From an uncultured delta proteobacterium (lineage in GTDB: Bacteria; Myxococcota_A; Polyangia; Polyangiales; Polyangiaceae): a stretch of 64,000 nt of DNA. The first letter of the stretch is position 1; each line of letters begins with the position of its first letter. The position numbers were made by a program, and so were the translations under genes. The notes beneath the pieces were generated by a model that was not told the origin of the DNA, did not search any database, and saw nothing but the letters and a program-made list of their open reading frames with translations. The stretch covers positions 1,440,001 through 1,504,000 of the forward strand of contig CAWKKR010000008.1 of assembly GCA_963850305.1 (NCBI GenBank). Reading direction: 5' to 3'. Shown piece after piece: positions 7,717 to 24,730 of this stretch.

Positions 7717-7732
7717 CGCAAGAATCGTGCGA
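7717..7732 (-). promoter_or_regulatory. sigma54-like -24/-12 promoter of the cco operon
   Basis: Minus strand TCGCACG-ATTC-TTGCG against consensus TGGCACG-N4-TTGC; one G of the conserved GG is C. Confidence 0.55.
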
Positions 7733-7772
7733 AGCACTCGCGGCCAAAGTTTTCGGACAGTTCCTGGTCGCG

Positions 7773-7806
7773 ATGCGCCGGTTGCACGCACGCGCACGGC
7801 TTGCGC
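7773..7806. promoter_or_regulatory. Tandem RYGCA-N5-TGCRY enhancer-like boxes
   Basis: ATGCG-CCGGT-TGCAC, 4 nt, then the perfect palindrome GCGCA-CGGCT-TGCGC (7792-7806). Confidence 0.65.
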
Positions 7807-7927
7807 GGGGCGCGGATGACGTCGCGACGACGTCTGCAGCAACGCCACATCATCGAGCCGATGGGATCCGTGCTCGTGCTCCAACCGTGAACTGCGTTCG
7901 CCTACGGCGAAGCGTCACGCTCGTTCC

Positions 7928-8728
7928 TCAAAGCGCCGGCGACTTCTCGCGCGGTTCGACGACCCGTTCGGTGGAGGGCATCGCTGGAAAGACGGATCGG
8001 TTTCGTCCGCCCGATTTCGCCTCGTAGAGCGCCGCGTCGGCCATGGCGCAGAGAGCTCCGCTGGTGGCGTGCTCCGCGTGCGCGATGTCGGCGATTCCGA
8101 TCGAAACCGTCGGTGCTGGAGCGCCCGGGAAGGGTGGCCGTAGCGTCTCGCGTATGCGCTCGGCCAGGCCATGACCCCCAACGCCGTCCACTCCGGGCGC
8201 CAGAACGACGAATTCGTCTCCGCCCCATCTCGCTGCCAGATCGCTTGCGCGGCCCGATGCGGAGAGTGCGTCGGCAACCGTCCGGAGCGCGGCGTCTCCG
8301 GCAGCGTGGCCTTGCCCGTCGTTGATCGCCTTCAGGTGGTCAACGTCGATGAGGAGGAGCGATAGCGGTGAGCCGTAGCGCGCTGCTCGCCTCACCTCCT
8401 CGGCTAGCCGCGTCTCGAAGTGTCGGCGATTCGCGAGGTGTGTCAGGGAATCGGTTTTTGACGACTCCTCGAGCCGGTCGGTTCTCTTTCCGAGAAGTTT
8501 TCCAAGCACGACGAAGACGAGAGCAGTACTCACCGTCAAGTAGCCGTAGGTCAGCATGTCCCCAGCCACGTCCGCCGCGATCCCGTCGATCGACGGCCGC
8601 CCTGAAACGATCTGGCGAATGACAATCAGGCCGGCGGGCGCGCCGAAAGCGAGTAGCACGCCGACGGCCGGGTAAAGTATCGACTTAGGCCACGCGGGCG
8701 GCGGGGACGTGCTCACATCGATCGGCAT
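7928..8728 (-). CDS. Membrane-anchored diguanylate cyclase
   Basis: Two TM helices, DSLTHLANRR, IDVDHLKAINDGQGH, RASD I-site and GGDEF. Confidence 0.93.
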   Translation of the reverse strand: MPIDVSTSPPPAWPKSILYPAVGVLLAFGAPAGLIVIRQIVSGRPSIDGIAADVAGDMLTYGYLTVSTALVFVVLGKLLGKRTDRLEESSKTDSLTHLANRRHFETRLAEEVRRAARYGSPLSLLLIDVDHLKAINDGQGHAAGDAALRTVADALSASGRASDLAARWGGDEFVVLAPGVDGVGGHGLAERIRETLRPPFPGAPAPTVSIGIADIAHAEHATSGALCAMADAALYEAKSGGRNRSVFPAMPSTERVVEPREKSPAL

Positions 8729-8801
8729 CAGCAGGTTTCATACCCGAGGTCGAAGATCGAGCGAGCTTCACGTCTGGCAGTCGGCGGCCCGGGCTTCGTC
8801 G

Positions 8802-8817
8802 TGGCATGCGCTATGCT
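8802..8817 (+). promoter_or_regulatory. sigma54 promoter for CBS-USP-DUF4010 genes
   Basis: TGGCATG-CGCT-ATGCT with GG/GC at the correct 12-bp spacing, ~70 nt before the CBS gene. Confidence 0.6.
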
Positions 8818-8888
8818 AGCTGTGCTTTCCACCTACCAGGCGATGCCTCGATGGCCGCAGGGTCCTCCCCGGTCCCCAGAGGAACACT

Positions 8889-9299
8889 ATGACAGCAAGC
8901 CCTATAACTGCCTACATGGCCCACCACCCCCACACCATCGGCCGTGAACAAACGGTGGCCAAGGCTCACGAGGTGATGAGGAAGTACGGCATCCGTCATC
9001 TGCCCGTTCTGGACGGAGGACGCATCGTCGGGCTCGTTTCCGAGCGTGATCTCTTCGTCGTGGAAGGGCTGCGGGACGTCGATGCCGCACACGTTACGGT
9101 CGAAGAAGCGATGAGCCAGGACCCGTACGTCGTTCCCCCGACGAAGCCGCTCGGCGAGGTGGTACGGGAGATGGCCGCGCACAAGTACGGCTCGGTAATC
9201 GTTGCCAAGGATTCGGCGATCATCGGCGTGTTCACGACGGTGGACGCGCTGAAGGCGTTGAGCGACACGCAGACGTGGGAAGCGCGCCACCCATTCTGA
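8889..9299 (+). CDS. CBS domain protein
   Basis: IRHLPVLDGGRIVGLVSERDL and IGVFTTVDAL tandem CBS motifs; GAGG RBS. Confidence 0.92.
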   Translation: MTASPITAYMAHHPHTIGREQTVAKAHEVMRKYGIRHLPVLDGGRIVGLVSERDLFVVEGLRDVDAAHVTVEEAMSQDPYVVPPTKPLGEVVREMAAHKYGSVIVAKDSAIIGVFTTVDALKALSDTQTWEARHPF

Positions 9300-9393
9300 G
9301 CCCGTGCGCGAAGGCCAGAAACAACTTTTCGACCGGATGAGCGAGCCCCGGCTAACATCTTGCTCTGCGGTGCCGTAGGAGACGGAGGTTTCG

Positions 9394-9834
9394 ATGAAGA
9401 GGATGCTCGTGGCCTTGGACGGTTCTGCTCGAAAGCATGACGTGCTCGGTGCAGCGATTGCGCTGGGGCGCAAGACTGGCGCGAAGCTGGTGCTCTTTCG
9501 CAGCGTTGGGATCCCGAGGGAATTGCCCGAGGAGGCCTATTCCCTTGCGCCCGACGCCGTCCCCGAGCTCCTTCACGCAGCGGCGATGAGAGAGCTCGAA
9601 AGCCTCCAGGTCGACGTTCCGAACGAGCTCCGGGGTCCCCTTCGAGTGCTCATCGGCGCCCCGTGGCAGACGATCGAACGCGTTGCCGTCGAGGAGGATG
9701 TCGATTTGATCGTCATCGGTTCGCACGGCTACGAAGGGGCCGATCGCCTGCTCGGCACGACGGCGGCAAAAGTCGTCAACCACGCAGACCGTGCCGTTCT
9801 CGTCGTTCGAGCTCCAGACCGGCTCAACAGGTGA
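9394..9834 (+). CDS. Universal stress protein
   Basis: MLVALDGS; DLIVIGSHG..DRLLGTTAAKVV; GGAGG RBS. Confidence 0.93.
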   Translation: MKRMLVALDGSARKHDVLGAAIALGRKTGAKLVLFRSVGIPRELPEEAYSLAPDAVPELLHAAAMRELESLQVDVPNELRGPLRVLIGAPWQTIERVAVEEDVDLIVIGSHGYEGADRLLGTTAAKVVNHADRAVLVVRAPDRLNR

Positions 9835-11099
9835 TGCCGCGGGAGTTCCTCGCGGACGTCCCGCGCGACGCGGTCAAGATCGCGGTCGTGTTCGCGCTTG
9901 CGTTCTTGATCGGGCTCGAGCGCGAGGAACACAAGCAGCTCGACGCGACCTACTCCTTCGGCGGGATCCGGACGTTCCCACTCATCGCCCTCGTGAGCTA
10001 TGCGCTCGCGCTGATGTCGACGCCTCTCCTCGTCCCGTGGTCGATCGGATTCGCGGTCATCGGCGGACTCATGTTGCTTTCCTATCACCACCGGCTCGAG
10101 AGCCAGCCACCGAGGGGAATCACCACGGAAATCACGGCGCTGGCAACATACGTCATCGGCGGTCTCGTCGAGCACGAGCGTTACTGGATCGCGACGACGC
10201 TCGCCGTACTCAGTGTGCTGCTGCTCGAGCTGAAGAGGGGCCTCGAGGATCTGACCCGGCACATCGCCTCGGACGAGATCGTCACGGTCACGAAGTTTCT
10301 CGCCATCAGTGTCGTCCTGTTGCCGATTGTGCCCGATCGGGATCTCACCCGCTTTCAGATCAACCCGTTCAAGACCTGGCTCGTCGTGGTGGGTGTCAGT
10401 GGCGTCTCGTTCGCAAGTTACGTCGTTCAGCGGCTTCTGGAAGGCCGCGGCGGTCTGATCTTGTCGGCCGTTCTCGGCGGCGCGTACTCCTCGACGGTGA
10501 CGACCGTAGTGCTCGCCAAGCGGGCCAAGGAAGAGTCGCGCCCGAACCTGTTTGCCGGGAGCATTCTCACCGCGTCCGGGGTGATGTACGCAAGGCTCGT
10601 GCTCCTCGTGGCATTTTTCAACCGGACACTCGCGGCGCGGCTCGCGCCCGCCTTCGCGGGGCTGGCCGTCCTTGGGATCCTGGCAGGCTGGGTCGTCTCG
10701 AATCGACCCGACGGGGCCCGAGCAGTGCAGAAGCAACGACAGGCCCCGAAGAACCCCCTTGAACTCGGCTCGGCGTTCCTGTTTGCCGCCATCTTCGTTT
10801 TGATTCTCGTTCTGACGCACCTGGCTCGCGAGTTTCTCGGACGCGCTGGGCTATACTCGCTCGCGGCCATCATGGGGGTTACGGACGTCGACCCGTTCAT
10901 ATTGGGGCTCACTCAGATGAGCCCCCTCTCGACACCCCTTCGATTGGCGGTCGCGGCCATTGTCATTGCCGCAGCGAGCAACAATGTCATCAAGGGCATC
11001 TATGCATATGCGTTTGCCGACCGCGCGACGGGGCGGAAAAGTCTATCGCTTCTGTTCGCGCTCGCCTTGGTCGGGCTCGTCCCGCTCGTTTGGGTCTGA
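9834..11099 (+). CDS. MgtC/SapB family, DUF4010 membrane protein
   Basis: IGLERE, GGIRTFPLI, GITTE, GGAYSSTVTT, GVTDVDP. Start MPREF overlaps the USP stop. Confidence 0.88.
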   Translation: MPREFLADVPRDAVKIAVVFALAFLIGLEREEHKQLDATYSFGGIRTFPLIALVSYALALMSTPLLVPWSIGFAVIGGLMLLSYHHRLESQPPRGITTEITALATYVIGGLVEHERYWIATTLAVLSVLLLELKRGLEDLTRHIASDEIVTVTKFLAISVVLLPIVPDRDLTRFQINPFKTWLVVVGVSGVSFASYVVQRLLEGRGGLILSAVLGGAYSSTVTTVVLAKRAKEESRPNLFAGSILTASGVMYARLVLLVAFFNRTLAARLAPAFAGLAVLGILAGWVVSNRPDGARAVQKQRQAPKNPLELGSAFLFAAIFVLILVLTHLAREFLGRAGLYSLAAIMGVTDVDPFILGLTQMSPLSTPLRLAVAAIVIAAASNNVIKGIYAYAFADRATGRKSLSLLFALALVGLVPLVWV

Positions 11100-11129: not shown

Positions 11130-12503
11130 CTACCGACTGGTCTTCGAGAGACCGTATTCGTGCAGCCGGTATTGGATCGTTCGGACGCTGATATCGAGAA
11201 GTTCGGCCGCCTTCGTCGTGGAGCCGTCCGTCCCTTCCAGCGTCTTCGTGATCGCGTACCGCTCGATCTCGGCCATCGTGGATCCGGGAATGCGGAGCGG
11301 GCCAAGACCGTCGAGGGTCGTTTCGAAGGGAAGGTCTTCCACGTCGATGAGCTGCCCTTCGGTGAGTACGACGGCCCGCTCGATGGCATTCTCCAGCGCG
11401 CGAACGTTACCCGGCCAGCGGTGTCCGACGAGTTTCGCGCGCGCTTCTCTGGTGAACCCCTCGATACGCTTGTGATTGTCGAGCGCGAATCTCTTCAGAA
11501 AATGTTCCGCAAGCACGATTATGTCCAGGCCGCGAAGTCGGAGCGGCGGCATCTCGATCTGCACGACGTTCAGTCGGTAAAATAGGTCCTCTCGGAATTT
11601 CCCGTCGCTCACCGCCGTCGTGAGGTCCTTGTTGGTTGCGGCAATCACACGCACGTCCACGCTCACGGTCTCGTTCCCACCGACGCGTTCGAACATCCTC
11701 TCCTGGAGAACACGGAGGAGTTTCACCTGCGTCGATGGTGAAATCTCGCCGATTTCATCCAGGAAGAGGGTCCCGCCGTCGGCCTGCTCGAAGCGACCCG
11801 TGCGGCGCCGCTCCGCTCCGGTGAAGGCACCCTTCTCGTGTCCGAAGAGCTCGCTCTCGAGCAACGACTCGGCGAGCGCGGAGCAATTCAGCGTCACGAA
11901 CGGCTTCGCCGAGCGAGGTCCGAGCGCGTGGATCGCCCGCGCGAGCTCCCCCTTACCGGTTCCACTTTCCCCGGTCACGAGGACAGTCGCACGCGACGAA
12001 GCCACCTGCTTCGCGACGCGATAAACCTTCTGCATCACGGCACTCGTTCCGAGAAGCCCCTGGAGTCCATCGACGTCCCGGTCCTGGATCTGCCGGCGGA
12101 GATTTTCCGCCTCCACGCGGACGTCGCGATGCTCCAAGGCTCGTTCGATCGCGACCTCCAGGGCATCGAAGTCGAAAGGTTTCGACAGGTAGTCCTCGGC
12201 GCCCAATCGCATGGCCGAGACCGCGGCGGCCAGATCCTGGTGCGAGGTGACGACGATGACGGGAAGATGGGCGTTCGCTTCACGCACCTTCGCGAGCAGT
12301 TCCATCCCATCCATCCGCGGCATTTCGAGATCGGTCACCACGACGTCCGGGGGCCGCTCCGCCGCGATGGCGAGGGCGGCGACGCCGTCTTCGGCGGAGT
12401 CCACCTCGTATCCCCGGCCTCTGAGGAGCGGCACCAGGGCGGAGCGAGCCCCTGGCTCGTCATCGACGATGAGGATGCGTCCCTTGTTTTCCCGATTCGC
12501 CAT
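11130..12503 (-). CDS. sigma54-dependent NtrC-family response regulator (receiver-AAA+-HTH)
   Basis: ILIVDDE/VTDLEMP receiver, [42 protein letters not shown]. Start at 12503 or 12518. Confidence 0.95.
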
Positions 12504-12819
12504 GCTGGCTCCTGTCACGTCGCCTTCGAGAGGCTAGTTCCGATGGGTACATTACGCGTTGCGGGACGTCCCGGTATCGCGAATCGTAAGGACCTGAATG
12601 CGCGACATACGGGCGAGCACGTGTCGAAGTTGGTCATTTCGGCGACTCTCTGCACCTCATGTGCCAGCTCGGAGCAGGTGGGCGTCGGCGCCGCGGAGGG
12701 CCAACCGGCAGCCGTCGTCTGCGAGGCAAGGGTCCGCAAGACAAGGTAGGAGGATCTCGTCTTCAGCCTCGCGCACGAGGGGTGCAGCGACTACGATCGC
12801 AGGCACGGAATTTTCGAGC

Positions 12820-13149
12820 ATGAAAACGGCCAAAGCAAAACTCGTCGCGATCGTCTTTCCGTTCGGTACGGCCGATCGTCTCGTGCCCGAGCTCGAGCGC
12901 CTCGGCGTGTCCGGGTACACGAGCTGGCGTGTGGACGGGGCTGGCTTCGAAGGAACGCGCCGCTACGGTCTCGTAGACGGCGCCAATGTGCGCCTGGAAA
13001 CGGTCGTCACGCCACAGATCTGCGACCGGATCCTCCAGTATCTGCTCGAGAATTATTCCGATGTTGCACTCATCGCGCATGCGCACGACGTCCAGGCCAT
13101 CCCTCGGGAGCACTTCGTCTCGTCGCCGGATATCGAGTTCGTGAGATGA
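12820..13149 (+). CDS. P-II-like (SbtB/DUF190-type) signalling protein
   Basis: 109 aa; GVSGYT..V.G.G..G.R and NVRLETVV are typical of P-II-like proteins. Confidence 0.72.
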   Translation: MKTAKAKLVAIVFPFGTADRLVPELERLGVSGYTSWRVDGAGFEGTRRYGLVDGANVRLETVVTPQICDRILQYLLENYSDVALIAHAHDVQAIPREHFVSSPDIEFVR

Positions 13150-14141
13150 AGATGCCCTACGCGCTCGGCGCGGCGATGCTGATCGCCGCCGCATTTGGAT
13201 TCGGCTACGCGGGCCGCGTCCACCCGACGACATCGTCCACGCACCCGGATGCTCCCGGCGCTCCGGCTGCTGTCGTGGAGAGCGGCGAGGGCACGACTGC
13301 AGGCCTCGCCATCTCGGGCCGCGTCGTGGAGACGATCGACGTGGCGAAGTACACTTATCTCCGTCTCGCCACCGCTCGAGGGGAGACCTGGGCGGCCGTT
13401 CCGAAGAGCGCGGTCGCTCGGGGGGCATCCGTCACCGTCACGAACGCCGCACCCATGGAGCATTTCACGAGCACCACCCTGAAGCGGACGTTTGACGTCA
13501 TTTACTTCGGATCGCTCGCGGGAAAGGGCGAAGTCAGCGGAAATCTCCCCCCGGAGTCCGAGCAACCGATCAACGGGCATGTCGAGGCGGCGAACGATCC
13601 GGGAATCCCCGAGGCGCTCCTCGATAATCCGAGCGGCGCCCTGCCGCCCGGCCACCCGAGCATCGGTAACGGCGCCATGCCCCTCGTGAATGGCGATCAG
13701 GCGTTGCCTCCGGGTCACCCCAGCATCGACGACCCCGGCGCTTTGCCGGCAACCGGAGCATTGCCCCCTGGGCACCCTGGTGATGTGCCGAACACCGCAC
13801 CCGTGGCGATCCCGAAGCTCGTGCGCGCAGCGGGCCCGAACGGCTTCCGCATCGTCGATCTGTTCGCCAATGAACGACGGCTCGTCGGGCAGACCGTGCG
13901 AGTGCGCGCGATGGTGACGAAGGTGACTCCAGACGTGCTCGGAATGACGTTTCTTCACGCGAAAGACGGCAGCGGGGACGCAGCAGCGAAGACGGACGAC
14001 ATCGCCGTGATGACCTCGGCTCGACCGGCTCGAGGCGCCGTCGTCGTGTTCGAGGGTGTTCTGCGAATGAACGCGGATCTCGGTATCGGATATCGCTACC
14101 CCGCACTCCTCGACAAGGCGACGGTCGTGAGGACCGATTGA
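13146..14141 (+). CDS. Exported NrfJ-like / OB-fold protein with LPPGHP repeats
   Basis: Signal/TM segment, GRVVETIDVAKYTYLRL..GETWAAVP domain, three LPPGHP repeats, C-terminal OB-like domain (VRVRAMVTKV..FLHAKDGSG). ATGA overlap with the P-II-like gene. Confidence 0.65.
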   Translation: MKMPYALGAAMLIAAAFGFGYAGRVHPTTSSTHPDAPGAPAAVVESGEGTTAGLAISGRVVETIDVAKYTYLRLATARGETWAAVPKSAVARGASVTVTNAAPMEHFTSTTLKRTFDVIYFGSLAGKGEVSGNLPPESEQPINGHVEAANDPGIPEALLDNPSGALPPGHPSIGNGAMPLVNGDQALPPGHPSIDDPGALPATGALPPGHPGDVPNTAPVAIPKLVRAAGPNGFRIVDLFANERRLVGQTVRVRAMVTKVTPDVLGMTFLHAKDGSGDAAAKTDDIAVMTSARPARGAVVVFEGVLRMNADLGIGYRYPALLDKATVVRTD

Positions 14142-14151: not shown

Positions 14152-15489
14152 TCACGGGCGGGTCGGGAGCGTCGCCGGCGGCTTACCCGTGATTGCCTTG
14201 ACCGAGTCGTACAGCAGTTCCCGGACATAAACCGGGTTGTGGACACCGCCTGCCGCCCCTCGGCCGAGAAGCAGGTAGTTGTACAGAGCGCCGGCTTGGT
14301 CGGCGGTGAGCGGCGCCGTGACACCGCCGTCGGATTCCGGCGAATAGTTCTGCGGGCGTACCTGGTCCGTCTGGAACTGATTGTCGGCGAGATCCGTGCT
14401 CGAAAGAGGTCCGTATGGCGCGGCCGTGTCGCGCGTGAGCCAGCCCTTGCCGTTGAGCGCGACGCGCAGCTCCTGGATACCCGCTTCCATCAAACTCTGC
14501 CCACCGATCACGTCGAAGCTGGTGGCCGTCGCGTGGCAACCCGACTGCTGGCACGTGCTGAGCTGTGGAGCGAAGGAGTGATCCCCGATGCCCATGTTCG
14601 TCGCGACGGGCGGCATGTGGCACTCGATGCAACCATCCTTGAACGCCTGGTGCGATGACGTCTTGTAGATCTGACCGGCGTAATGATACCCGCCCTTGCC
14701 GGTGTAGATGTCCGCCTGCGGTCCCTCGTGCGGCCCCCAATACGTGGTCGTGAGCTTGTTCGATGCGGTAATGAAGTTCGTCACGTCCTTGCGTGACTTG
14801 TGGCAGAAGATGCACGCGTTCCCTTTGCCATAAGGGCCCGCCTGGGTTCCGTCGGAAACACCGACGGCGGAGCTCTTCTCGACGAGCATCTGATCCGTCG
14901 GGTCCGTCGGAACCCGGAGCGGAAACGAGCCCGGCGTGTAGTTCTTTCCGGTCACGTGAGGGTCGTTACTCTGGTCCACCTCGTGACATGTCGTGCAGTC
15001 CACCTCCGCGACGGTGGCGCTGCCCGCGTAGGTGGATTCCGTGATCGTGTCGTTCACGCTGTTCAGGTAGTTGACCTGACCGAGCGCCGAGTGAGGACCC
15101 GTGGTTCCGAGGTGGTTCACGGTTCCCGCAAGGCGAAGCGCGACGCCGTCGATCGCGTGGCAGTTTCCGCACGGCTCGTTTCCCGTCCAGTCGGCGACCT
15201 CGGAGCCCCCGAGGTTCGCGATGTACGTCGCGTAGTGCGTGCTTGCTTGCCACTCCGCGACGATCCCGGTGAAGCCGTGGCACGGCGAAAGGCAGCTCGT
15301 CGACAGCGCGACGCCCGCGTCGGGGCCGGCGTCGATGCTCGTCATCAGTCCGGGCGGCCCTTGTTGCCCCGACAATCCTTGCGGTCCCGCGTCGCCCCGT
15401 GCTCCGCGTGCTCCCGGCGGCCCCGCAGGCCCGGTACAAGCGATCGACACCGTTCCAAGTGCAAGGACCCAATACAAGCGCGTGATCAT
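14152..15489 (-). CDS. Hexaheme cytochrome c lipoprotein with collagen-like stalk and OmcB-like C-terminus
   Basis: Lipobox SIAC; 10 Gly-X-Y triplets; CLSPCH, CGNCH, CTTCH, CIFCH, CIECH, CQQSGCH; C-terminal GALYNY..GGVHNPVYVRELLYDSV. Confidence 0.85.
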   Translation of the reverse strand: MITRLYWVLALGTVSIACTGPAGPPGARGARGDAGPQGLSGQQGPPGLMTSIDAGPDAGVALSTSCLSPCHGFTGIVAEWQASTHYATYIANLGGSEVADWTGNEPCGNCHAIDGVALRLAGTVNHLGTTGPHSALGQVNYLNSVNDTITESTYAGSATVAEVDCTTCHEVDQSNDPHVTGKNYTPGSFPLRVPTDPTDQMLVEKSSAVGVSDGTQAGPYGKGNACIFCHKSRKDVTNFITASNKLTTTYWGPHEGPQADIYTGKGGYHYAGQIYKTSSHQAFKDGCIECHMPPVATNMGIGDHSFAPQLSTCQQSGCHATATSFDVIGGQSLMEAGIQELRVALNGKGWLTRDTAAPYGPLSSTDLADNQFQTDQVRPQNYSPESDGGVTAPLTADQAGALYNYLLLGRGAAGGVHNPVYVRELLYDSVKAITGKPPATLPTRP

Positions 15490-16610: not shown

Positions 16611-16662
16611 GCCCGGATAGTAGGCATCCGCGTACGTCGCGCAAAGGGTTCGTTCATCGGAC

Positions 16663-18519
16663 GTGACGTTCGTCCTCGGGGTTGTGTCTCGGCCTCGGTT
16701 TCTCGTCCTTATTCGAAACCGTCACAGGAAGCGGATCCGTGGATATCATCCGGCTCCGTTGTCGCCACGAGTTCGCGCTTTTTCGTCACTCGCTCTGGGG
16801 ATCGCCATCATCGTCGCGATCGTCGCCGCTTGCTCGGCGCCGGAATCGACGGGGACGGGACACCGCGCGCCGGGACTGGGCGTGTACATCCCGCTCGCGT
16901 GGAAGACGGATCGTGTCGTGAGCGGGCACGCGAGGCACGTCGTCGAGCTTCACATCCCCTGCACGCGGTGCCATGCGCTCACCGCCGACTCGATGGGCAC
17001 CGTCTCACCGATTCGCTGCGCCGCCTGCCACGCCGAGCAGGCACGCTTCGATCACGCCGAACGAGAGGCTCGGAAGAAGTTCGGTCCCGCCGTGTCGACC
17101 GACTGCATGACCTGCCACATGTTCACGGTGGAAGGCGCGGGGCGTCCGGCGGCGGAACTGCTCGCGAGCGTGCCGCCGCCGACGGCTTGCGGGCGTTGCC
17201 ACGCCTCCAAGGGGAACGATGCGCCGCAGGTCGAGGTGCACGCAACGAGTGCGTGCGTGACGTGTCACACGCCCCACGAGAATGGCAAGCCCCACGGCGG
17301 TCCGTGCGCTGATTGCCACCAGGACATCAAGACCGAACACGCAAGCGCGGGCAAGACGCCGAGCGAAGTCTGCACCACGTGTCACTCCCACCAGCACGCA
17401 CCAGCCTCCGCCGCGATCGGCGCCTGCGTGACCTGCCATGCGAGTCACGAGCCCGTCATTCCGGTCACCGCGCTCTTCGCGGGCGGACATACCGAGTGCA
17501 TCGGGTGCCACCGGCCACACGATTTCACACCGGCGAGCGTCGTGCCTTGCCGGTCGTGTCACGAGAACCAGCATGTGCTCGCCGAGTCCATCGTGCCCGC
17601 GCATGCACGGTGCGAGAGCTGTCACGCGCCGCACGACGTTCGCGGCGTGAGCGACCAGGTCTGCTTCACCTGCCACGCGAACGTGCACTCCGACCACCCA
17701 AAGCAGGCCGCGGGGTCTTGCATTGGATGCCATAATCCGCACCCACACGAGGCGGCGACGGCCGTGATTGCCAGGCCGTGCAGCAACTGCCACCAGATAG
17801 CGGCGTCCGATCATGCCTTCCACGGCGGCATCGCGTGCGAGACCTGCCACCAGCCACACCAATTCAAGCTCACGCTCGCGAGCACGGTTCTCTGTCGAAA
17901 CTGCCACGCGAAGCAGGTCACCCTGGTATCGACGAACGCCGGACACCAGGCGTGCGAAGGATGTCATCGCGGGCTTCCGCACCAGCCGGCGAAGGTCGAG
18001 GTGCCCTGCGCGACGTGCCATGCGGCCGTCGTGGCCGTGGTCACGAAAGGTCACTCCGAGTGCACCCAGTGCCACGAGCCGCACAGCGGCGCATTCGCGG
18101 CCGTGTGCAAGACGTGTCACGCGGTCGAGCAACAAACCGCCCCTCCTGGCCACCAGGCGTGCACGAACTGCCACGACCAGCACAACGGCGTTCAGAAGGC
18201 CCCCTGCGCCGCCTGCCACCAAGTCGAAGCCGCCTCCGAGCACGGCAAGATCGCGGGCGGTTGCACCAACTGTCATCGACCGCACGGCCCGGGCGGCATC
18301 TTCGCGCCGCCCGCGTGCACCACCTGCCATCAACCCGCGCAGCTACCAGGGCTTCACAGCATCCCGAAGCACCAGCTCTGCATGAACTGCCACACCGGTC
18401 ACGGCGACCCGACCGCGCCCCTCCGCACGCCGTGCCTCACGTGCCACACGGATCGCAAAGATCATTTCCCCGACGCCCCGAGTTGCACGAGCTGTCATCT
18501 CTTCGGGCCGACGAAGTGA
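16663..18519 (+). CDS. 27-heme cytochrome c, probable lipoprotein
   Basis: 27 CxxCH motifs counted, mostly in paired H..CxxCH.PH...CxxCH modules. Hydrophobic leader ends VAAC; true start may be TTG 16759. Confidence 0.92.
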   Translation: MTFVLGVVSRPRFLVLIRNRHRKRIRGYHPAPLSPRVRAFSSLALGIAIIVAIVAACSAPESTGTGHRAPGLGVYIPLAWKTDRVVSGHARHVVELHIPCTRCHALTADSMGTVSPIRCAACHAEQARFDHAEREARKKFGPAVSTDCMTCHMFTVEGAGRPAAELLASVPPPTACGRCHASKGNDAPQVEVHATSACVTCHTPHENGKPHGGPCADCHQDIKTEHASAGKTPSEVCTTCHSHQHAPASAAIGACVTCHASHEPVIPVTALFAGGHTECIGCHRPHDFTPASVVPCRSCHENQHVLAESIVPAHARCESCHAPHDVRGVSDQVCFTCHANVHSDHPKQAAGSCIGCHNPHPHEAATAVIARPCSNCHQIAASDHAFHGGIACETCHQPHQFKLTLASTVLCRNCHAKQVTLVSTNAGHQACEGCHRGLPHQPAKVEVPCATCHAAVVAVVTKGHSECTQCHEPHSGAFAAVCKTCHAVEQQTAPPGHQACTNCHDQHNGVQKAPCAACHQVEAASEHGKIAGGCTNCHRPHGPGGIFAPPACTTCHQPAQLPGLHSIPKHQLCMNCHTGHGDPTAPLRTPCLTCHTDRKDHFPDAPSCTSCHLFGPTK

Positions 18520-18576
18520 TCGCGCCACCGCGCGGTCAATCGACGCCGGACGCTCGTGCCGAAGCTTCTCCCGTGA

Positions 18577-18612
18577 CCGAGGAGCGCCTCGGGGCCCTCC
18601 CGAAATGGGAGG
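18577..18612. terminator. Twin GC-rich hairpins between convergent cytochrome genes
   Basis: CCGAGG-agcg-CCTCGG and CCTCCC-gaaat-GGGAGG; no U-tract. Confidence 0.3.
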
Positions 18613-18636
18613 AGGCTCACATACGTCACACCCACG

Positions 18637-19800
18637 CTACGGGACCGTGAACGTCACGATACCGTCGACGTGGAGCTCGGGATGCGTGAACGTGCGGTTG
18701 TCGTCGGCGATGTCGCCGTGGCACGCGCTGCACCTCGGATTGAGATCGACGTACGGGTGCGGAGCCGGCGGGGGCAGGGCATGGCACGTGCCGCAGGCGT
18801 CCTGCGAGCCGTCCACGACGTTCCAGGCGGGCGTCGTGTTCGTGCCTCCGGAGGGGTTTCCGTCCTTGAACGCGGCGCCATGGCATTCGGTGTTGCGACA
18901 ACTGCCGTTGTCGTAAACCGGGGTTCCGCTGCCCGATGCGGCGGCGCCGGAGAAGAGGACGGACGGGGGAAGACCCGTATCGATGTGCCCGGGCTCGAGC
19001 ACGGTTGCGGGCACATGGTGACATTCGGCGCACGGGACTGCTCGCGCGGTGGCGTTGCCTGAAAGGTGCGCTTGATGCGCGCCGGCTCCGGGTTGGCCGG
19101 GCACCGGCGCCGGATTGGTTCCTTGACCGTGGCATGTGGTGCAACTCGTCGGAACGTCGACATCGACGACGCCGTTCACGTGGAGCAAAGGATCGATGAT
19201 GGTGCGGTCGTCGCTTCCGACGACCATGCCGTGGCAGAGCGAGCAATCGGTCAACTGGGGGTGCGGCGTCGGAGGTGGCAATCCGTGGCACGTGCCACAC
19301 GTCTCCGCCGACGTTCGCGGTGCGGTCCAGACCGGGTTGGCGTCGTGGTGGCAGTACGTGTCTCGACAGGTGTGCGCGACGGGATCGTAGTTCGGCGTGA
19401 GCCCGTTCTCTTTCGCGAGCGCGCCGAAGACGAGGGTTGCCGGTGGCGCGTGATCGATGTGCCCGGGCGAGTCCGTCCGTTCCGGCACGACGTGACACTC
19501 GTCACAGGCGACCGGTCCGTGCGTCGAGGACGCGTCCAGGTGGATCGAATGCGCCCCGACGCCAGGGTCGTGGGGATCGCTCGAGCCCAGCAAATCGATC
19601 GGCGGCGCCGCGCGGCGGAGCGCGGTGCCGGAGCGCCGTGCGTCGCCGTGACAGGAGGTGCACTCGGTCGATGCGTCTCCCTGTCCGAGCTCCTGGGGAC
19701 GCTCGAGGCAGCCCACGGGCACGGTGCCGAGCGCGGCAGCGACGCTGACGGCGAGGCCGAGCCCCGCCCAGCGTCGGACCCCATCACTCGTGTCACTCAT
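18637..19800 (-). CDS. Decaheme CxxxxCH/CxxCH-domain cytochrome c lipoprotein (two 5-heme modules)
   Basis: 8 CxxCH plus CRDTYCH and CRNTECH; duplicated GAH..HL..C.ECH.VP..GHID..CGTCH.LPPP.PHP..LHV.G module. Leader ends VGC; start MSDTS overlaps the upstream stop. Confidence 0.9.
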   Translation of the reverse strand: MSDTSDGVRRWAGLGLAVSVAAALGTVPVGCLERPQELGQGDASTECTSCHGDARRSGTALRRAAPPIDLLGSSDPHDPGVGAHSIHLDASSTHGPVACDECHVVPERTDSPGHIDHAPPATLVFGALAKENGLTPNYDPVAHTCRDTYCHHDANPVWTAPRTSAETCGTCHGLPPPTPHPQLTDCSLCHGMVVGSDDRTIIDPLLHVNGVVDVDVPTSCTTCHGQGTNPAPVPGQPGAGAHQAHLSGNATARAVPCAECHHVPATVLEPGHIDTGLPPSVLFSGAAASGSGTPVYDNGSCRNTECHGAAFKDGNPSGGTNTTPAWNVVDGSQDACGTCHALPPPAPHPYVDLNPRCSACHGDIADDNRTFTHPELHVDGIVTFTVP

Positions 19801-20845
19801 GGCAATACCGGCACATGCCCTCGCTGGTACTCTGGCTGCTGCGGAAGCCGGGCGGGTGTGGATTCCCGCCGTAGGCACCGACCTTGTGACACGTGATGCA
19901 GTTCGTCGCGGGGCCTTGGTCGTGGCAGCTCGCGCAGAGCGCGATGTCACGCCGAGCCGCGACGCCGTGAAAGTTGGGCGAGCTCGTGTCGGTGCCGATC
20001 CAGCCGACGGGATGAGGGTTGACGCCGTTGATCGCGTTACCGCTCACGCCTCGCTCGACGTGGCACGCATCGCACGTGGCCGGCTCGTGACAGCTCAGAC
20101 ACCGCGCCGGATCGGCCTGCGCTTCCATCGGGTGGCGCACCAGGAAGTCTCCGCGGTGCACGAAGTCGCTCTCGATCTTCTCCGGGCGCCGCTGTTCCAC
20201 GGTGAGATCCTGCGCGGTGTCGTGGCAGCTGTCGCAGTCCGCCTGAGCGTGACACGAGCGGCAGAGTTGTTTCTCCTCCGCCGCCGCTTGCCCATGGTTG
20301 CGAATGAAATCCCCCTCGTGCCTGAGAAACGTGCGGGGCATCAGACGAACGAGATCTCGTTGTGCGTGACACGGCTGACACCTGCCGCGATCCCACTCTG
20401 CCTGGTGCTCGTGGCATGTCAGGCACTTCTTCATCGGCGGGATGTCGGGAGCGTCCTTCTCGACGACGCCCGCGTGACACGGGACGCACTGCCCGCCGAT
20501 CCCCCCGAGCGCGAGGTGCCGATCGTGATCGAACGCGATCTCGCCGTCGGGTCGCTCGAGCGGGGCGGCGATCACGCGCCGCATTTCGTCCTCGTGACTG
20601 TGATGACAACGATCGCACAGCGCGGCCCTGGGCAGCTCGTCTGCTGGACCGGCGCCACTCGAAGTGTGGCAGTCGGTGCAATTCAAGCATTGGGGTTCCC
20701 CTAGGTGGCCACATGCGAGCCCAGTCAGGTGGAGTCGATGAGGAAACCGCGGTGGGATTCGCTCGCTGCACGCGGCGACCACGGCGGCCACACATAGCAC
20801 GACCGCGAGCACGCTGCCGAGACGCGAGGCGCTCCGATCCGTCAT
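19793..20845 (-). CDS. Dodecaheme cytochrome c (c3/c7-like N-terminal part), lipoprotein
   Basis: 12 CxxCH motifs; FPHRLH and FDHDRH c3-type His motifs; leader ends VAAC. Start MTDRS overlaps the porin stop (ATGA). Confidence 0.92.
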   Translation of the reverse strand: MTDRSASRLGSVLAVVLCVAAVVAACSERIPPRFPHRLHLTGLACGHLGEPQCLNCTDCHTSSGAGPADELPRAALCDRCHHSHEDEMRRVIAAPLERPDGEIAFDHDRHLALGGIGGQCVPCHAGVVEKDAPDIPPMKKCLTCHEHQAEWDRGRCQPCHAQRDLVRLMPRTFLRHEGDFIRNHGQAAAEEKQLCRSCHAQADCDSCHDTAQDLTVEQRRPEKIESDFVHRGDFLVRHPMEAQADPARCLSCHEPATCDACHVERGVSGNAINGVNPHPVGWIGTDTSSPNFHGVAARRDIALCASCHDQGPATNCITCHKVGAYGGNPHPPGFRSSQSTSEGMCRYCHE

Positions 20846-22281
20846 CGCGCGACGCCTCGAGAACGATCCAGCTCGCACACGACTCGAATCTCCGTCTCGG
20901 CGTCCAGGCGGGCATAGGGGGAATTCGCGAGCGATGCGCCAATCAGGAGATTCAGGGACTTTCGCGCCTGCCAGCTGAGGGTTCCGGCGTACACGCTGGA
21001 CGTGCGCACATTCCGGATCGGCGCGTCGTAGAAGTACCCGTAAGCCTCGAGCGTGCCCGTCACGGCCTCTTCGAAGCGGCGCGCGAGAGAGAGCCGAACG
21101 GCGTGGTATCCGTTGTCGGGCGCGACCAGTCGCGTGTACTCCACGCGAACCGTCGTGCGCCCCGCCGGATCCGGGAGTGCTCGGACGGCGACCGTTCCTC
21201 GCGCTCCGGGTCTGCCGCGGTCGTAGACGTCGAAGAACCCGGACGACTCGAGCCGTAGAGATGGGAGTGCCCGCAGCGTCGCGTATCCGCCGGCCTCGTC
21301 GTAACTGTCCGTGCTGAACACCGACAGCACCGACTGTCGGGAGAGGAGAAGCGCAGGCGCCGCGTGCAGGTAATCCACTGTCACGTCGAGCTTCTCGACG
21401 GGCGTGGCGTTGGCCGAGAGCCGGGCGTCCGCCAGACGCCGCTCGTCGACATCGAGGAGCGCGTTCCCTGCGACGACAACGGTGTCGGGCAAGTTCAGGC
21501 GCGCGTCGGCCCCGAGATCGGCCCTCGCGATCAGCCCGTCGACACGCTCTTCATGGAAAGAGAGACCCGCTCGAGCCCACCCGTTTCCGTAACCCACGCG
21601 ACTCCCGGCGAGCCACGTGCTCGACCTCGGCGGTGCCTGCATTGCAGTCGGGTCCTTGAGTGAGGTATCGGCGGCGGCGCCGAGCAGATAGTAACCCGGG
21701 CGCTCGTCCCATCTCGGCAGGACCGTGTAGCCGCCATATCCTTCCACGTCGAAACCAGCACCGAGATCGATCCGGACGTCGCCGCCGTCGAAGCGCGCGT
21801 AGCGAGCTGCTCCGCCGGCGACGTGCTGCCGCCCGAGTCGCACCGACACACGGCCTTGCCGGAGGAGGATGTTCGCGGTCTGGATGTCGCCATCGAGAGC
21901 GTGCTCGGGCGACGGATTGCCGAGCGTCGCCTCGCCCCATGCGGCAAGCTCGACGTCCACGCCGTCCTTGTTCCATGGCGTGTCGAGATCGTGGACGTTC
22001 AGGAAGACGTACTCTTGAACGGGAAGGAGGGTGCGTGTGTAGACGAGCGCTCCGTTCGGCCCCGGCAGGAGCGCGCGCCGAAAGAGCTCCGCATAGGTTT
22101 CGCTGCGCGCGTAGAGCTCGAACTGATCGCCGGTGCCCGCGGTCCTGTCAGGGTCCGCCGTAGCAACCGAAGGCCATAGCGTGATGAGCCCTAAAAGGAC
22201 GCTCGAAGCGATGCGCCCGTCCGAGGGTCGCAGGAAACGAGGCTGCGCGCGACCGCCGTCCCCGCCGGACGGCAACCTCAA
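20842..22281 (-). CDS. Outer-membrane beta-barrel (porin of a porin-cytochrome complex)
   Basis: Signal peptide (..WPSVATA-D), alternating amphipathic strands rich in Y/F/G (VRLGRQ..FDGG, LEAYGYFYD, YAGTLSW); first gene of the operon with two multiheme cytochromes. Start codon uncertain. Confidence 0.8.
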   Translation of the reverse strand: MRLPSGGDGGRAQPRFLRPSDGRIASSVLLGLITLWPSVATADPDRTAGTGDQFELYARSETYAELFRRALLPGPNGALVYTRTLLPVQEYVFLNVHDLDTPWNKDGVDVELAAWGEATLGNPSPEHALDGDIQTANILLRQGRVSVRLGRQHVAGGAARYARFDGGDVRIDLGAGFDVEGYGGYTVLPRWDERPGYYLLGAAADTSLKDPTAMQAPPRSSTWLAGSRVGYGNGWARAGLSFHEERVDGLIARADLGADARLNLPDTVVVAGNALLDVDERRLADARLSANATPVEKLDVTVDYLHAAPALLLSRQSVLSVFSTDSYDEAGGYATLRALPSLRLESSGFFDVYDRGRPGARGTVAVRALPDPAGRTTVRVEYTRLVAPDNGYHAVRLSLARRFEEAVTGTLEAYGYFYDAPIRNVRTSSVYAGTLSWQARKSLNLLIGASLANSPYARLDAETEIRVVCELDRSRGVAR

Positions 22282-22501
22282 GGGGCCGCCCCGAGAAGGG
22301 CATGTGCACGGTTCGCCCCGTTGTCATCCACGACGAAGATGCTGTTCGATGCACCGTCTACACCTGGGGGCATGGTCCGCGGGCGCCAGGTTAGCCGCTC
22401 TCGGGAGGCACACAAGGCGCACTCGCGAAACTCCGTGAGATTCCGCGAGACCAGCTACGTGTCCGAGTCTCCGAATCCCCACCTCGCGATCAAGGCTCCG
22501 T

Positions 22502-22535
22502 ATGCACGCCCTGCAGCGCCGTGCAGGAGTTGCAG
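22502..22535. promoter_or_regulatory. Tandem RYGCA-N5-TGCRY-like boxes between the porin operon and usp
   Basis: ATGCA-CGCCC-TGCAG, 4 nt, GTGCA-GGAGT-TGCAG. Confidence 0.62.
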
Positions 22536-22658
22536 GTGGATGCTCGAGATTCCGCACTTATTCGTCGGACAGTCCGGTTTCTCGCGCGGCTGCCGCTACT
22601 CGAATTCCGGCGGTGGCGAACCGGGCGGCGCGCGTCCCGCGCATCGGAATTCTCGCGT

Positions 22659-22674
22659 TGGCACATGGGGTGCA
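22659..22674 (+). promoter_or_regulatory. sigma54 promoter of usp(-ackA)
   Basis: TGGCACA-TGGG-GTGCA with correct GG/GC spacing. Confidence 0.62.
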
Positions 22675-22702
22675 CAGATAAGGCTCGCGAATTCAGTGAC
22701 TC

Positions 22703-23353
22703 ATGGAAAGGAAGGATGCTGCGATGTCCGAGGCAACAGCGAGCGAGAAACCGTACCAGATCGTCATTGGATTCGATTTCTCGGATCTCTCGGAGCGTGC
22801 CGTCGAGGAGGCTCTCGAGATCGCTCGACGGTGGGCACCGGCAGAGCTGCACGTCGTCACCGTCGCGCGGCCCGAAGGGCTCCTCGTCCGTCTGCCCGGC
22901 GAAGCGGACCCGATCACGGAAGACCTGGCGCGAGAGACGGTACGTCTGCGTATCGCGCAAGTCGTCGACGAGTATCAGGCGCACGTAGGACGGCTGGGCA
23001 TCGATCGCCTGGCGATCTACGTACTCGCGGGATTGCCCCTCGGGGATCCAGGAAAGCTCATCACCGACGTTGCTCGCGCCGTCGACGCCAACCTGATCGT
23101 GGTCGGCACGCACGGCCGCAGGGGGATCTCCCGGGTCGTGCTCGGATCGGTGGCTCAGCACGTCGTCCGAGAAGCGAGCACGAGCGTCTACGTGGTCCGT
23201 CCCGCGGATTTTGTCGGAGGCACACGAGTGCCGGCGATAGAACCCCCCCTCGCGCCCGGTGAACCCCATCTAAGGCAGTTCGAGCATCACCGAACCTACC
23301 ATTACGTCGACAAGGTGGCGCCCCGGACGAATCGCATCACGCCGGCGTCGTGA
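22703..23353 (+). CDS. Universal stress protein with C-terminal extension
   Basis: IVIGFDFS, LIVVGTHGRRGISRVVLGSVA; tail VPAIEPP..HHRTYHY. Start at 22703 or 22724. Confidence 0.9.
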   Translation: MERKDAAMSEATASEKPYQIVIGFDFSDLSERAVEEALEIARRWAPAELHVVTVARPEGLLVRLPGEADPITEDLARETVRLRIAQVVDEYQAHVGRLGIDRLAIYVLAGLPLGDPGKLITDVARAVDANLIVVGTHGRRGISRVVLGSVAQHVVREASTSVYVVRPADFVGGTRVPAIEPPLAPGEPHLRQFEHHRTYHYVDKVAPRTNRITPAS

Positions 23354-23454
23354 ACCCGGCGCTCCGAACGCTGCGAGGCTTGACCTCTCGACATGGCCGG
23401 TGAGATTCAACGGACCGGTTCCGTCACGCGGGGTCGCGCCCGAAAGGCTCGTGA

Positions 23455-24606
23455 ATGTCGCCGCCCAAAACGAACATTCTTTGCGTCAACGCTGGTTCAT
23501 CGTCGCTCAAGTACTCGCTGTTTGCGTTCGATGGCGTCAGTCCTCGACGGGTCGCAGGAGGCGATGTCAATCGGATTGGAACGACAGGTTCGACCGCGCC
23601 GGACTACTCGGCGGCCATCGAGACGGCTTTCTCGTCCTTTTCGACGAACGCGAACGGGTCCGAGGGCGGCGAATCACCGAGCGCCGTGGGACATCGAATC
23701 GTCCATGGCGGGCCACGTCTGTCGGCGCCATGTGTCATCGACGAGGCCGTACTCGCCGAGCTGGTGGAGCTGGTGCCACTTTCTCCACTACACCTGCCGC
23801 CAGCCATTGAGGCGATTCGAGCGACCCGCGCGCGTCTGCCAGGCGTTCCTCAGGTTGCCTGCTTCGACACTGCGTTTCACGGATCCATCCCGGAAGTGGC
23901 CCGCCGCCTTCCGCTGCCCGACCGCTTCGACCACGAGGGTATTCGTAGGTATGGGTTTCACGGGCTCTCGTACGAGTATGTCATGTCCGTTCTCGGTACC
24001 GAGGCGCCCTCTCGAATCGTCATCGCGCACCTGGGGAACGGCGCCAGCCTCGTCGCGGTGAAGGACGGTCGAGCCATCGACACCACGATGAGCTTCACGC
24101 CTACGGGCGGTATTCCCATGGGCACTCGCTCCGGCGATCTCGACCCAGGGGTGCTCCTCTACCTGCTGCGAGAACGCGGCTATACGGAGCGAACTCTCAC
24201 GGAGCTCGTCGAGCACGACGCCGGCCTCGTGGCGATCGGCGGCGCGTCTGACGTCCGGACACTGATGTCGCGGATGACCGTCGATGCGCACGCGAGGCTG
24301 GCTCTCGACGTGTTTGCCTACTCCATAAAAAAGACGATCGGTGCGTATGTCGCGGCTCTCGGCGGCATCGATCTCCTCGTGTTCACCGGCGGCATCGGAG
24401 AACACGCCGCGCCCATACGGGCCGAAGCGTGCCGTGGACTCGAAGGCCTGGGAATCGAGCTCGATCAGACGAAGAATGCTGCCGGGGACCCGAGGCCGAG
24501 TTCCGTTCATAGCCGATGTGTCGTGCGCGTGGTGCGCACGGACGAAGAGCTCGTCATTGCGAGGCACACGCGTGACGTTCTGTTGTCGTTGCGGCGTCCA
24601 TCCTAG
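23455..24606 (+). CDS. ackA: Acetate/propionate kinase
   Basis: NAGSSSLKY, GHRIVHGG, FDTAFH, RRYGFHGLSY, HLGNGAS, MGTRSGD, FTGGIGE, TDEE. Confidence 0.96.
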   Translation: MSPPKTNILCVNAGSSSLKYSLFAFDGVSPRRVAGGDVNRIGTTGSTAPDYSAAIETAFSSFSTNANGSEGGESPSAVGHRIVHGGPRLSAPCVIDEAVLAELVELVPLSPLHLPPAIEAIRATRARLPGVPQVACFDTAFHGSIPEVARRLPLPDRFDHEGIRRYGFHGLSYEYVMSVLGTEAPSRIVIAHLGNGASLVAVKDGRAIDTTMSFTPTGGIPMGTRSGDLDPGVLLYLLRERGYTERTLTELVEHDAGLVAIGGASDVRTLMSRMTVDAHARLALDVFAYSIKKTIGAYVAALGGIDLLVFTGGIGEHAAPIRAEACRGLEGLGIELDQTKNAAGDPRPSSVHSRCVVRVVRTDEELVIARHTRDVLLSLRRPS

Positions 24607-24616
24607 AAATCCGTCG

Positions 24617-24651
24617 ATGCATTTTTGGCGCGTGAGGTGCAGCACCTGCGT
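24617..24651. promoter_or_regulatory. Tandem RYGCA-N5-TGCRY-like boxes
   Basis: ATGCA-TTTTT-GGCGC, 5 nt, GTGCA-GCACC-TGCGT. Confidence 0.55.
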
Positions 24652-24714
24652 CGAGATCGGGCCACCAGGTCCAGCGACTCTCGGCTGCAGCGGCGCCCGC
24701 GAAGGAGCCGTTGT

Positions 24715-24730
24715 TGGTACGAGCGTTGCT
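24715..24730 (+). promoter_or_regulatory. sigma54 promoter of the GNAT-acyl-CoA synthetase gene
   Basis: TGGTACG-AGCG-TTGCT, near consensus. Confidence 0.7.

Follow-up and report, generated by a model that had tools for sequence, protein, structure and literature searches.

What reads the tandem palindromes that stand in front of respiratory and fermentative genes in an uncultured delta proteobacterium of the Polyangiaceae? The question is raised by a stretch of 64,000 nucleotides (the window, C8:1440001-1504000) from a genome of 6.26 Mb with 66% GC and a completeness of 94.8% (GCA_963850305.1, here G000). A preliminary description, made from the letters alone, had proposed that a repeated enhancer and sigma54 promoters join a cbb3 oxidase, a cytochrome conduit and acetate metabolism in one low-oxygen regulon under an NmpR-like regulator. 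We consider it probable that the NmpR-family activator encoded in the window reads the paired boxes and switches on about thirty sigma54 promoters, presumably when oxygen is low. The pairs, their enrichment, their coupling to sigma54 sites, their targets, the family and clade of the regulator and the match of clade and period are all read from the DNA itself and are taken up in this order.

The four pairs of RYGCA-N5-TGCRY boxes are where they had been placed, at 7773/7792, 15614/15633 and 22502/22521 with a period of 19 bp and at 24617/24637 with a period of 20 bp. The boxes at 7792 (GCGCA-N5-TGCGC) and 15633 (GTGCA-N5-TGCAC) are indeed perfect palindromes, and the gaps to the -24/-12 elements (40, 52, 122 and 63 bp) fall within the claimed 40-125 bp. 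A fifth pair had been overlooked. The pairs of the window are:

7773-7806, no strand: tandem enhancer pair, period 19, ahead of the cbb3 operon
9449-9482 (9449/9468), no strand: fifth 19-bp pair, within the coding sequence of a universal stress protein (USP), no sigma54 site nearby
15614-15647, no strand: tandem enhancer pair, period 19, on the side of cytochrome 14152-15489
22502-22535, no strand: tandem enhancer pair, period 19, ahead of the sigma54 element at 22659
24617-24651, no strand: tandem enhancer pair, period 20, ahead of the sigma54 element at 24715

Genes were called with our own dicodon model, which gave 4968 genes on 79.5% of the DNA and missed some broken ones; noncoding means outside these calls. 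Allowing no more than one mismatch in each box, we found 22 pairs of period 19 genome-wide, 20 of them outside called genes, and nine of period 20, six of them outside. Each of the 28 other periods between 15 and 44 gave at most seven pairs, with at most two outside genes, and periods 29 and 30 have one noncoding pair each. Order-4 Markov simulations of noncoding DNA (n=20) yielded 0-2 pairs of period 19 and 0-3 of period 20, against the observed 20 and 7. The frequency check suggested in the preliminary description thus puts the pairs far above expectation across the genome, and a chance origin of the boxes is rejected on the period counts and simulations together. A sigma54 site of at least 11 bits lies within 250 bp of 23 of the 28 noncoding period-19 pairs and five of the eight period-20 pairs, compared to 4.2% of 2149 random noncoding positions; the box matrix used here was trained on the pairs already found and is circular, but the proximity test is not. 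The median gap between pair and sigma54 site is 79 bp. Scores are in bits of a sigma54 matrix set by hand from the -24/-12 consensus.

In the window, the claimed sigma54 elements are of unequal quality: those at 22659, 24715 and 8802 are strong and that at 15546 is fair, whereas 7717 is non-canonical and 22350, the supposed porin promoter, is indistinguishable from chance.

7717-7732, minus strand: element of ccoNO, non-canonical TCGCAC...TTGC with the GG lost, 8.0 bits, background 8.6%
8802-8817, plus strand: strong element ahead of the CBS-USP-MgtC/DUF4010 genes, 15.0 bits, background at most 0.5%
12651-12666, minus strand: element of the regulator gene, overlooked before, 15.2 bits
15546-15561, minus strand: element facing cytochrome 14152-15489, 10.1 bits, background 2.6%
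22350-22365, minus strand: weak sigma54-like site before the barrel gene, 6.4 bits, background 18%, overlapping a lone box at 22349
22659-22674, plus strand: element facing the USP and acetate kinase genes, 15.2 bits, background at most 0.5%
24715-24730, plus strand: element facing the GNAT/acyl-CoA-ligase-like gene and phosphoketolase, 16.5 bits, background at most 0.5%

Between the -24 element of the cbb3 operon and its first ATG there are only about 15 bp, which would leave room for no more than a very short leader. That the four pairs are themselves misread sigma54 elements is excluded, since separate promoters stand 40-122 bp away; an overlap of sigma54 site and box of this kind was seen only at 15658-15674. 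There, a 14.5-bit sigma54-like site (15658-15673, plus strand), also overlooked before, lies 10 bp away from the tandem pair and overlaps a third, weak box. It points antisense into a small open reading frame (ORF; 15652-15924) and NapC and may be the promoter of an antisense RNA or an inactive site. No IHF site was matched between boxes and promoters in any of the four window gaps. The rpoN gene itself (G000:C9:20315-21786) is split into three pieces, for which assembly indels are likely, as for a kinase gene and an acyl-CoA-ligase-like gene; such indels, probably errors, change the frame in two of 41 genes checked against relatives.

The likely binder of the boxes, judged by its sequence, is the following protein:

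11130-12503, minus strand: NmpR-family sigma54 response regulator, 457 amino acids, REC-AAA-HTH, GAFTGA present, recognition helix SVRTIQYR

For comparison, nmpRSTU of Myxococcus xanthus was located in strain AM003 (locus L076) via a published primer, and the domains of NmpU, NmpT and NmpS were confirmed. In the phylogeny the window regulator and NmpR fall into the same clade (FastTree local support 0.977-0.984, with an outgroup of seven other activators taken from G000 only), in which the window regulator belongs to a sub-clade of its own (support 1.0). The helix differs from that of NmpR (SVRKIQYR) by Thr for Lys, and Thr is found in 120 of the 120 best homologues. Named homologues of the regulator come from Polyangiaceae, Labilithrix and Sorangium, which marks the source as a myxobacterium of the Polyangia. 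The regulator is therefore of the NmpR family, as had been suspected, but the closest relative of NmpR in G000 is a paralogue on contig C7 (55.9%, 506 bits, versus 52.5%, 446 bits). The NmpR site and the control of cbb3 genes given in the preliminary description both agree with the published NmpR regulon, whose consensus is GCGCA-N5-TGCGC (PMC11841059); the boxes share this consensus but not the period of 29-30 that NmpR prefers. The idea that the exchange of Lys for Thr altered the box found no support, as the half-sites are made up alike in both periods (T at position 2: 18/88 versus 12/84).

Could an unrelated factor read the boxes, or GC-rich DNA produce them by chance, with the regulator nearby by accident? 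The sigma54 consensus can mimic GCA-N5-TGC, as at 15658, where it overlaps a weak box, and G000 encodes about 30 sigma54-activator-like proteins. Yet the SxRxIQY helix, common to NmpR, the C7 paralogue and the window regulator, occurs in none of the seven other activators aligned, the pairs co-occur with the window clade, the enrichment is far above simulation and the boxes match the published NmpR site. We regard this explanation as very improbable.

The period follows the clade of the regulator. The comparison set comprised 41 genomes, 14 with a window-clade regulator and 27 without; G001-G006 are congeners of G000. The 14 genomes have 244 period-19 against 95 period-22 matches (215 against 93 without G000), and the excess is at least twofold in 12 of them, whereas the other 27 have 135 against 140; the genomes are kin, not independent trials, and the counts overstate independence. 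Congeners G001-G004 have only the window-clade regulator and show the excess, and G005 and G006 have neither (period 19/22: 1/6 and 7/9). For period 19, four Myxococcaceae genomes give counts close to the control (8/5, 10/9, 12/15 and 15/12). Counts of period 30 across genomes were too noisy and were set aside, since 30 is a multiple of three and controls were equally high.

The regulator loci, in which only pairs with a nearby sigma54 site were counted, give the same picture. In 15 window-clade loci (227 kb) 22 of 31 pairs have a period of 19-20 and two a period of 29-31; in 20 other NmpR-family loci of Polyangia (344 kb) 18 of 24 are at 29-31 and three at 19-20; and in eight Myxococcaceae loci three of four are at 30-31. 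Ahead of the gene run of the regulator, ten of 14 relative loci have a 19/20-bp pair (one of them about 900 bp away), three a 21-bp pair and one none. Both designs are even found in the same genome: G008 has periods of 19, 19 and 20 where it encodes the window-clade regulator and of 28-31 at a C7-type locus, and G000 has its 19-20-bp pairs plus the 31-bp pair of the C7 gene. At the orthologous ccoNO promoters (n=20) the period is 19 in G000, G001, G002 and G004, 22 in G003, 29 in G010 and 30 in G020, the remaining 13 having one box or none. The -24 element of ccoNO reads TCGCAC or TTGCAC in G000, G002 and G003 (at -31 in the latter two), and in other genera canonical GGCAC sites hold this position, at -29 to -34 in G008, G010, G017 and G020. 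In M. xanthus, according to PMC11841059, five of seven NmpR-bound promoters have a gap of 14-15 nt, corresponding to a period of 29-30, the gap at mxan_4246 is 24, and the pilR sites that NmpR binds are 5 nt apart, a period of 20. The two periods differ by 10-11 bp, one helical turn, so that both designs would place the dimers on the same face. From this we infer that the period may separate the two paralogues in the cell.

Alternatively, these promoters answer to the C7 paralogue, either by itself or jointly with the window regulator, and the 19-bp period is a habit of the lineage with no role in specificity. The C7 protein is the one nearer to NmpR and has an NmpS-like kinase beside it, the helices are near-identical, both periods use the same half-sites, and NmpR itself binds the period-20 site at pilR. 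However, G001-G004 have the 19-bp excess and no C7-type regulator, genomes with a C7-type but no window-clade regulator have little or no excess (G013 3/2, G014 4/3, G020 7/5, G021 7/4; G018, with 6/3, is borderline), and the C7 gene carries its own 31-bp pair. This makes the C7 paralogue an unlikely driver. Beside it, near genes for HSP20, alanine dehydrogenase and a USP, are strong sigma54 sites (18.3 and 12.0 bits) at L053:7300-7933 (G000:C7 near 1007346) and L053 near 6300, with no adjoining box of at least 8 bits.

How far does the regulon of the window regulator reach? With looser cut-offs 39 noncoding pairs were found, of which 32 have a sigma54 site. They predict 37 promoters and at least 63 genes, to which the cbb3 promoter, below the looser sigma54 cut-off, has to be added. 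The 32 pairs are spread over the whole genome, and the notion of an island has to be given up. Targets, named by Pfam and NCBIfam, are CBS proteins, USPs, hemerythrin, a Dps/ferritin-like protein, nitroreductases, band-7 proteins, phosphoenolpyruvate (PEP) synthase, phosphofructokinase, two ackA loci with phosphoketolase, GNAT/acyl-CoA-ligase-like proteins, proton and magnesium P-type ATPases, an alternate-type F1F0 operon, the multihaem cytochrome 14152-15489, and a four-subunit NAD(P)-linked NiFe hydrogenase encoded behind a HAD/GH65 pair. The hydrogenase may belong to group 3b, as its best matches are to sulfhydrogenase, below curated cut-offs. The F1F0 operon (L036:4499-8803, G000:C3) lies behind a 19-bp pair, and a homologous operon is found in the box-rich locus L221 of G004. 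As to the scope proposed earlier, cbb3, ackA, phosphoketolase and one multihaem cytochrome do stand behind boxes and sigma54 promoters, but the promoter of the porin operon does not rise above chance. A pair within 1.5 kb upstream was found for four of 13 USP and nine of 19 CBS genes, compared to 74 of all 4968 genes. Because boxed genes had served as seeds for the families, the enrichment of small families is inflated, and the CBS gene of the window should not count among the nine, as its pair lies across another gene. Among the four terminal oxidases a pair precedes cbb3 alone, the two A-type oxidases and the bd oxidase having none, and only two Fnr-type boxes were found in G000.

What signal would this regulon answer to? 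Low oxygen is suggested by gene content and by kinship with NmpR. The globin of NmpU, used as query, matched in none of the seven genomes of the genus, and protoglobin (PF11563) has no match in G000, at 94.8% completeness, but is present in 22 of the 41 genomes overall. In five relatives (G009, G011, G019, G034 and G038) a globin-PAS kinase directly precedes the window-clade regulator. These kinases (L063:8021-9616, L064-L067) look like the NmpU globin joined to an NmpS-like PAS-kinase, in appearance a one-step version of the NmpU-NmpS relay. In G001, G004 and G007 the neighbours of the regulator are a REC-kinase and a PAS-PAS-kinase-REC hybrid, and the same two genes are found in G000 at C8:883351-886433. 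The first PAS domain of the hybrid matches FixL (E 1e-15) and DosP (5e-11), and the proximal haem His is kept, aligned in G000 and present in four of the four copies shown. FixL-like hybrids are encoded in 12 of the 41 genomes, including G000-G004 and excluding G005 and G006. Four further copies or fragments are present in G000 (C5:64440-66137, C8:908917-909999, C1:710734-712623 and C4:77833-80064), and congeners have 3-5 copies.

A 19-bp pair is found upstream of the REC-kinase in five of six globin-less and in none of four globin-bearing genomes, at a distance of 120 to 1725 bp, in G000 across a peptidase gene. Leu+11/His+12 of the H-box is common to the REC-kinases of five globin-less genomes and to the five globin kinases; the REC-kinases of G009 and G011 are without it, and it occurs in none of the other G000 H-boxes (45 H-boxes). 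The candidate REC-kinase of the window regulator is built like NmpS, yet the best NmpS match in G000 is the REC-PAS-kinase beside the C7 paralogue (44.7%). For the double-receiver protein NmpT weak receiver matches turned up (best E 1.7e-12), without a dedicated search. In the genus, the globin kinase may have been replaced by the REC-kinase and the FixL-like haem-PAS hybrid, with the REC-kinase as phosphodonor; judged from these sequence features, we give this exchange slightly less than even chances.

Several findings speak against the account given here. In G000 the regulator's own promoter (12651-12666) has no box pair beside its sigma54 site, and the strong element at 8802 before the CBS-USP genes, pointed out in the preliminary description, has no box of at least 4 bits in 8601-8900. 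G024 has the regulator without the excess (8/10), and in G008 the excess is under twofold; G018, G029, G035 and G037 show a twofold excess without a window-clade regulator, and G028 has two 20-bp pairs without it. NmpR binding at pilR suggests that the period is no absolute barrier. None of the four HSP20 genes has a pair, and neither has the bd oxidase. On the side of the sensor, the REC-kinase gene is frameshifted in the G000 assembly, the PAS-kinase part of the globin kinases has its closest overall match in the NmpS-like C7 protein and not in the REC-kinase (although no match as close exists in G001, G003 and G004), and the hybrid's PAS domain has Leu at the column of the distal Arg of FixL. 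In FixL it is this Arg that senses bound oxygen.

With regulon and regulator as described, the signal could also be a haem ligand other than oxygen (CO or NO, for example), the energy or redox state, or stationary phase. The replaced Arg and the globin sensor not found in G000 or in any of the seven genomes of the genus fit such a signal, as do the bd oxidase without a pair and the many targets (USP, CBS, band 7, P-type ATPases, Dps-like) that are general stress or energy genes. But cbb3 is the sole boxed oxidase, regulators of the same clade stand beside globin kinases in five relatives, and the gene set overlaps three regulons that were shown to respond to hypoxia. A signal other than oxygen appears improbable to us, about as much so as the C7 paralogue as driver.

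Low oxygen as the signal leads to the following model. It would be read by the PAS hybrid kinase and passed via the REC-kinase to the window regulator, whose phosphorylated dimers would occupy the two boxes on one side of the helix, at a distance of about two turns (three for NmpR). By analogy with NtrC-type activators, from whose behaviour the binding, oligomerisation and looping steps are taken, the bound dimers would assemble into oligomers, reach sigma54-RNA polymerase by looping and open the promoter. The output would be high-affinity respiration with cbb3, ATP from substrate-level reactions by phosphoketolase and acetate kinase, disposal of NAD(P)H, likely with evolution of H2, USP and CBS proteins and at least one multihaem cytochrome at the surface.

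The oxidase and acetate genes of the window are, by Pfam, NCBIfam and gene calls:

1937 to beyond the window edge: heavy-metal P-type ATPase, after the cbb3 operon
2062-7702, minus strand: cbb3 oxidase operon with fused ccoNO, small ORF, ccoP, ccoG, FixH and DsbD_2
5281-5466, minus strand: small ORF of the cbb3 operon
5468-7702, minus strand: fused ccoNO of the cbb3 operon
8889-11099, plus strand: CBS-USP-MgtC/DUF4010 genes (Pfam)
22703-23353, plus strand: USP
23455-24606, plus strand: acetate kinase
24752-27555, plus strand: GNAT fused to an NDP-forming acyl-CoA-ligase-like domain, frame change near 25490
27583-30015, plus strand: phosphoketolase

An intact paralogue of the GNAT/acyl-CoA-ligase-like protein (920 amino acids) is encoded on C4. 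A further sigma54 activator (58935-61967, minus strand; GAF-GAF-PAS, 1010 amino acids) has a different helix and is unrelated to the boxes.

Does the cytochrome conduit belong to the regulon? The genes concerned are:

14152-15489, minus strand: multihaem cytochrome, lipoprotein-type N terminus, collagen-like linker, 4 CxxCH and 2 longer motifs
15921-22281, no strand: porin-cytochrome-like cluster (Pfam, haem counts, AlphaFold model)
15921-16610, minus strand: NapC/NirT (Pfam)
16663-18519, plus strand: 27-haem protein (27 CxxCH)
18637-20878, minus strand: 8- and 12-CxxCH cytochromes (haem counts)
20842-22281, minus strand: predicted 22-strand beta-barrel (AlphaFold model, mean pLDDT 85)

Within G000, only cytochrome 14152-15489 has a full pair and promoter. 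Its homologue in G007 likewise has a 19-bp pair and a sigma54 site in front, and a PDB sequence search with cytochrome 14152-15489 gave no match. The cluster is conserved in G001, G002 and G004 and in part in G008 and G013; exactly 27 motifs are also found in the 27-CxxCH protein of G001, G002 and G004, with 34-motif relatives in G008 and G013, and no named NCBIfam family scored above cut-off for it. The barrel fold comes from the alignment-based model, a single-sequence fold (pLDDT 30) having been discarded; it matches outer-membrane barrels in a fold search, the best being generic barrels, with no conduit porin among the matches listed, and no Pfam or NCBIfam family was found for the protein. 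Upstream of the barrel gene no boxes lie within 500 bp in five of five relatives. A same-strand NapC-cytochrome-barrel-cytochrome run in G001 has a 19-bp pair and a promoter of 13.5 bits in front of it, and in G000, G002 and G004 a single box lies near NapC. This distribution of boxes in G000, G001, G002, G004 and G007 makes it likely that in the genus the conduit belongs to the regulon, to which in G000 it belongs only in part. A 331-amino-acid protein without Pfam family (13146-14141, plus strand), which follows a P-II-like gene (12820-13149, plus strand), has homologues adjoining barrel or cytochrome genes in G008 and G013.

The regulon can be tested, since the clade is also present in cultured bacteria, namely Labilithrix luteola and Sorangium sp. 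So ce1099. It offers a testable picture of the ways in which a family commonly regarded as aerobic predators may get by with little oxygen, and it sketches an answer to the question, left open by the NmpR authors, of what the system controls outside M. xanthus. Should spacing alone indeed separate paralogues that share one box, this would be a natural insulation of sigma54 activators by a shift of one turn, of use both in the study of regulon divergence and in the design of orthogonal sigma54 switches.

Among known systems NmpRSTU of M. xanthus is closest. According to its papers (PMC11841059, PMC6211767), both systems have a regulator of the same NtrC-type clade with a near-identical helix, tandem GCA-N5-TGC boxes before sigma54 promoters, cbb3, CBS, USP and hemerythrin targets, and kinase genes inside the regulon; the mxan_4236 promoter is induced 6.5-fold in hypoxia. 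They differ in the period (19-20 versus mostly 29-30), in the NmpU globin, which was not found in G000, in the second paralogue with its 31-bp pair, in scale (37 predicted promoters and at least 63 genes versus seven promoters and 23 genes by strict search) and in the fermentation, hydrogenase and multihaem cytochrome targets that are extra in G000. With FixL and DosP the candidate kinase shares the first PAS domain and the proximal His, its haem binding being putative; compared to FixL, the G000 proteins are a PAS-PAS-kinase-REC hybrid and a REC-kinase, the distal Arg is replaced, and the output would be a sigma54 activator and not FixJ.

To our knowledge, DosR of mycobacteria is not a sigma54 activator and belongs to a different class of regulator. 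The likeness to DosR is one of output only, by overlap of target genes, and not of membership, HSP20 being without a pair in G000. The DosR regulon has USPs, nitroreductase, phosphofructokinase, a cation-transporting ATPase, PEP synthase and a group 3b-type NiFe hydrogenase in common with G000 (PMC3721108, bioRxiv 10.1101/2023.09.11.557286), and in M. smegmatis DosR controls the group 3b hydrogenase and PEP synthase (bioRxiv 10.1101/2023.09.11.557286, 10.64898/2026.10.24.761498, PMC3721108). The lxa locus of Burkholderia cenocepacia, as described in PMC3721108, is likewise a low-oxygen, USP-rich set with nitroreductase, cation ATPase, sugar kinase and a repeated palindrome; its motif is the Anr/Fnr-like TGA-N6-TCA, whereas G000 uses sigma54 enhancers. 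USP, nitroreductase, phosphofructokinase and cation ATPase are common to lxa and DosR (PMC3721108, bioRxiv 10.1101/2023.09.11.557286, 10.64898/2026.10.24.761498).

In our literature search, with most subscription papers outside its reach, neither an NmpR-type regulon of Polyangia nor a spacing switch between paralogues was found. It is tempting, though tentative and on balance doubtful, to go one step further: two NmpR-family paralogues of Polyangia that share one box would be insulated by enhancer geometry alone (two versus three turns), and the clade of this genus, with its FixL-like relay, would be a sigma54 counterpart of DosR that joins cbb3, acetate and hydrogen fermentation and a porin-cytochrome conduit. 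Porin-cytochrome conduits such as Pcc of Geobacter and MtrCAB of Shewanella consist of an outer-membrane barrel with multihaem cytochromes. G000 likewise has a barrel gene beside multihaem cytochromes and a NapC/NirT quinol dehydrogenase, known here from genes and model; in contrast to conduit porins, its barrel falls into no Pfam or NCBIfam family, and the folds that it matches best are those of generic barrels. The core logic of the regulon is known from NmpR; new, as far as we searched, are the shift of the period with the clade, the proposed exchange of the sensor and the DosR-like breadth.

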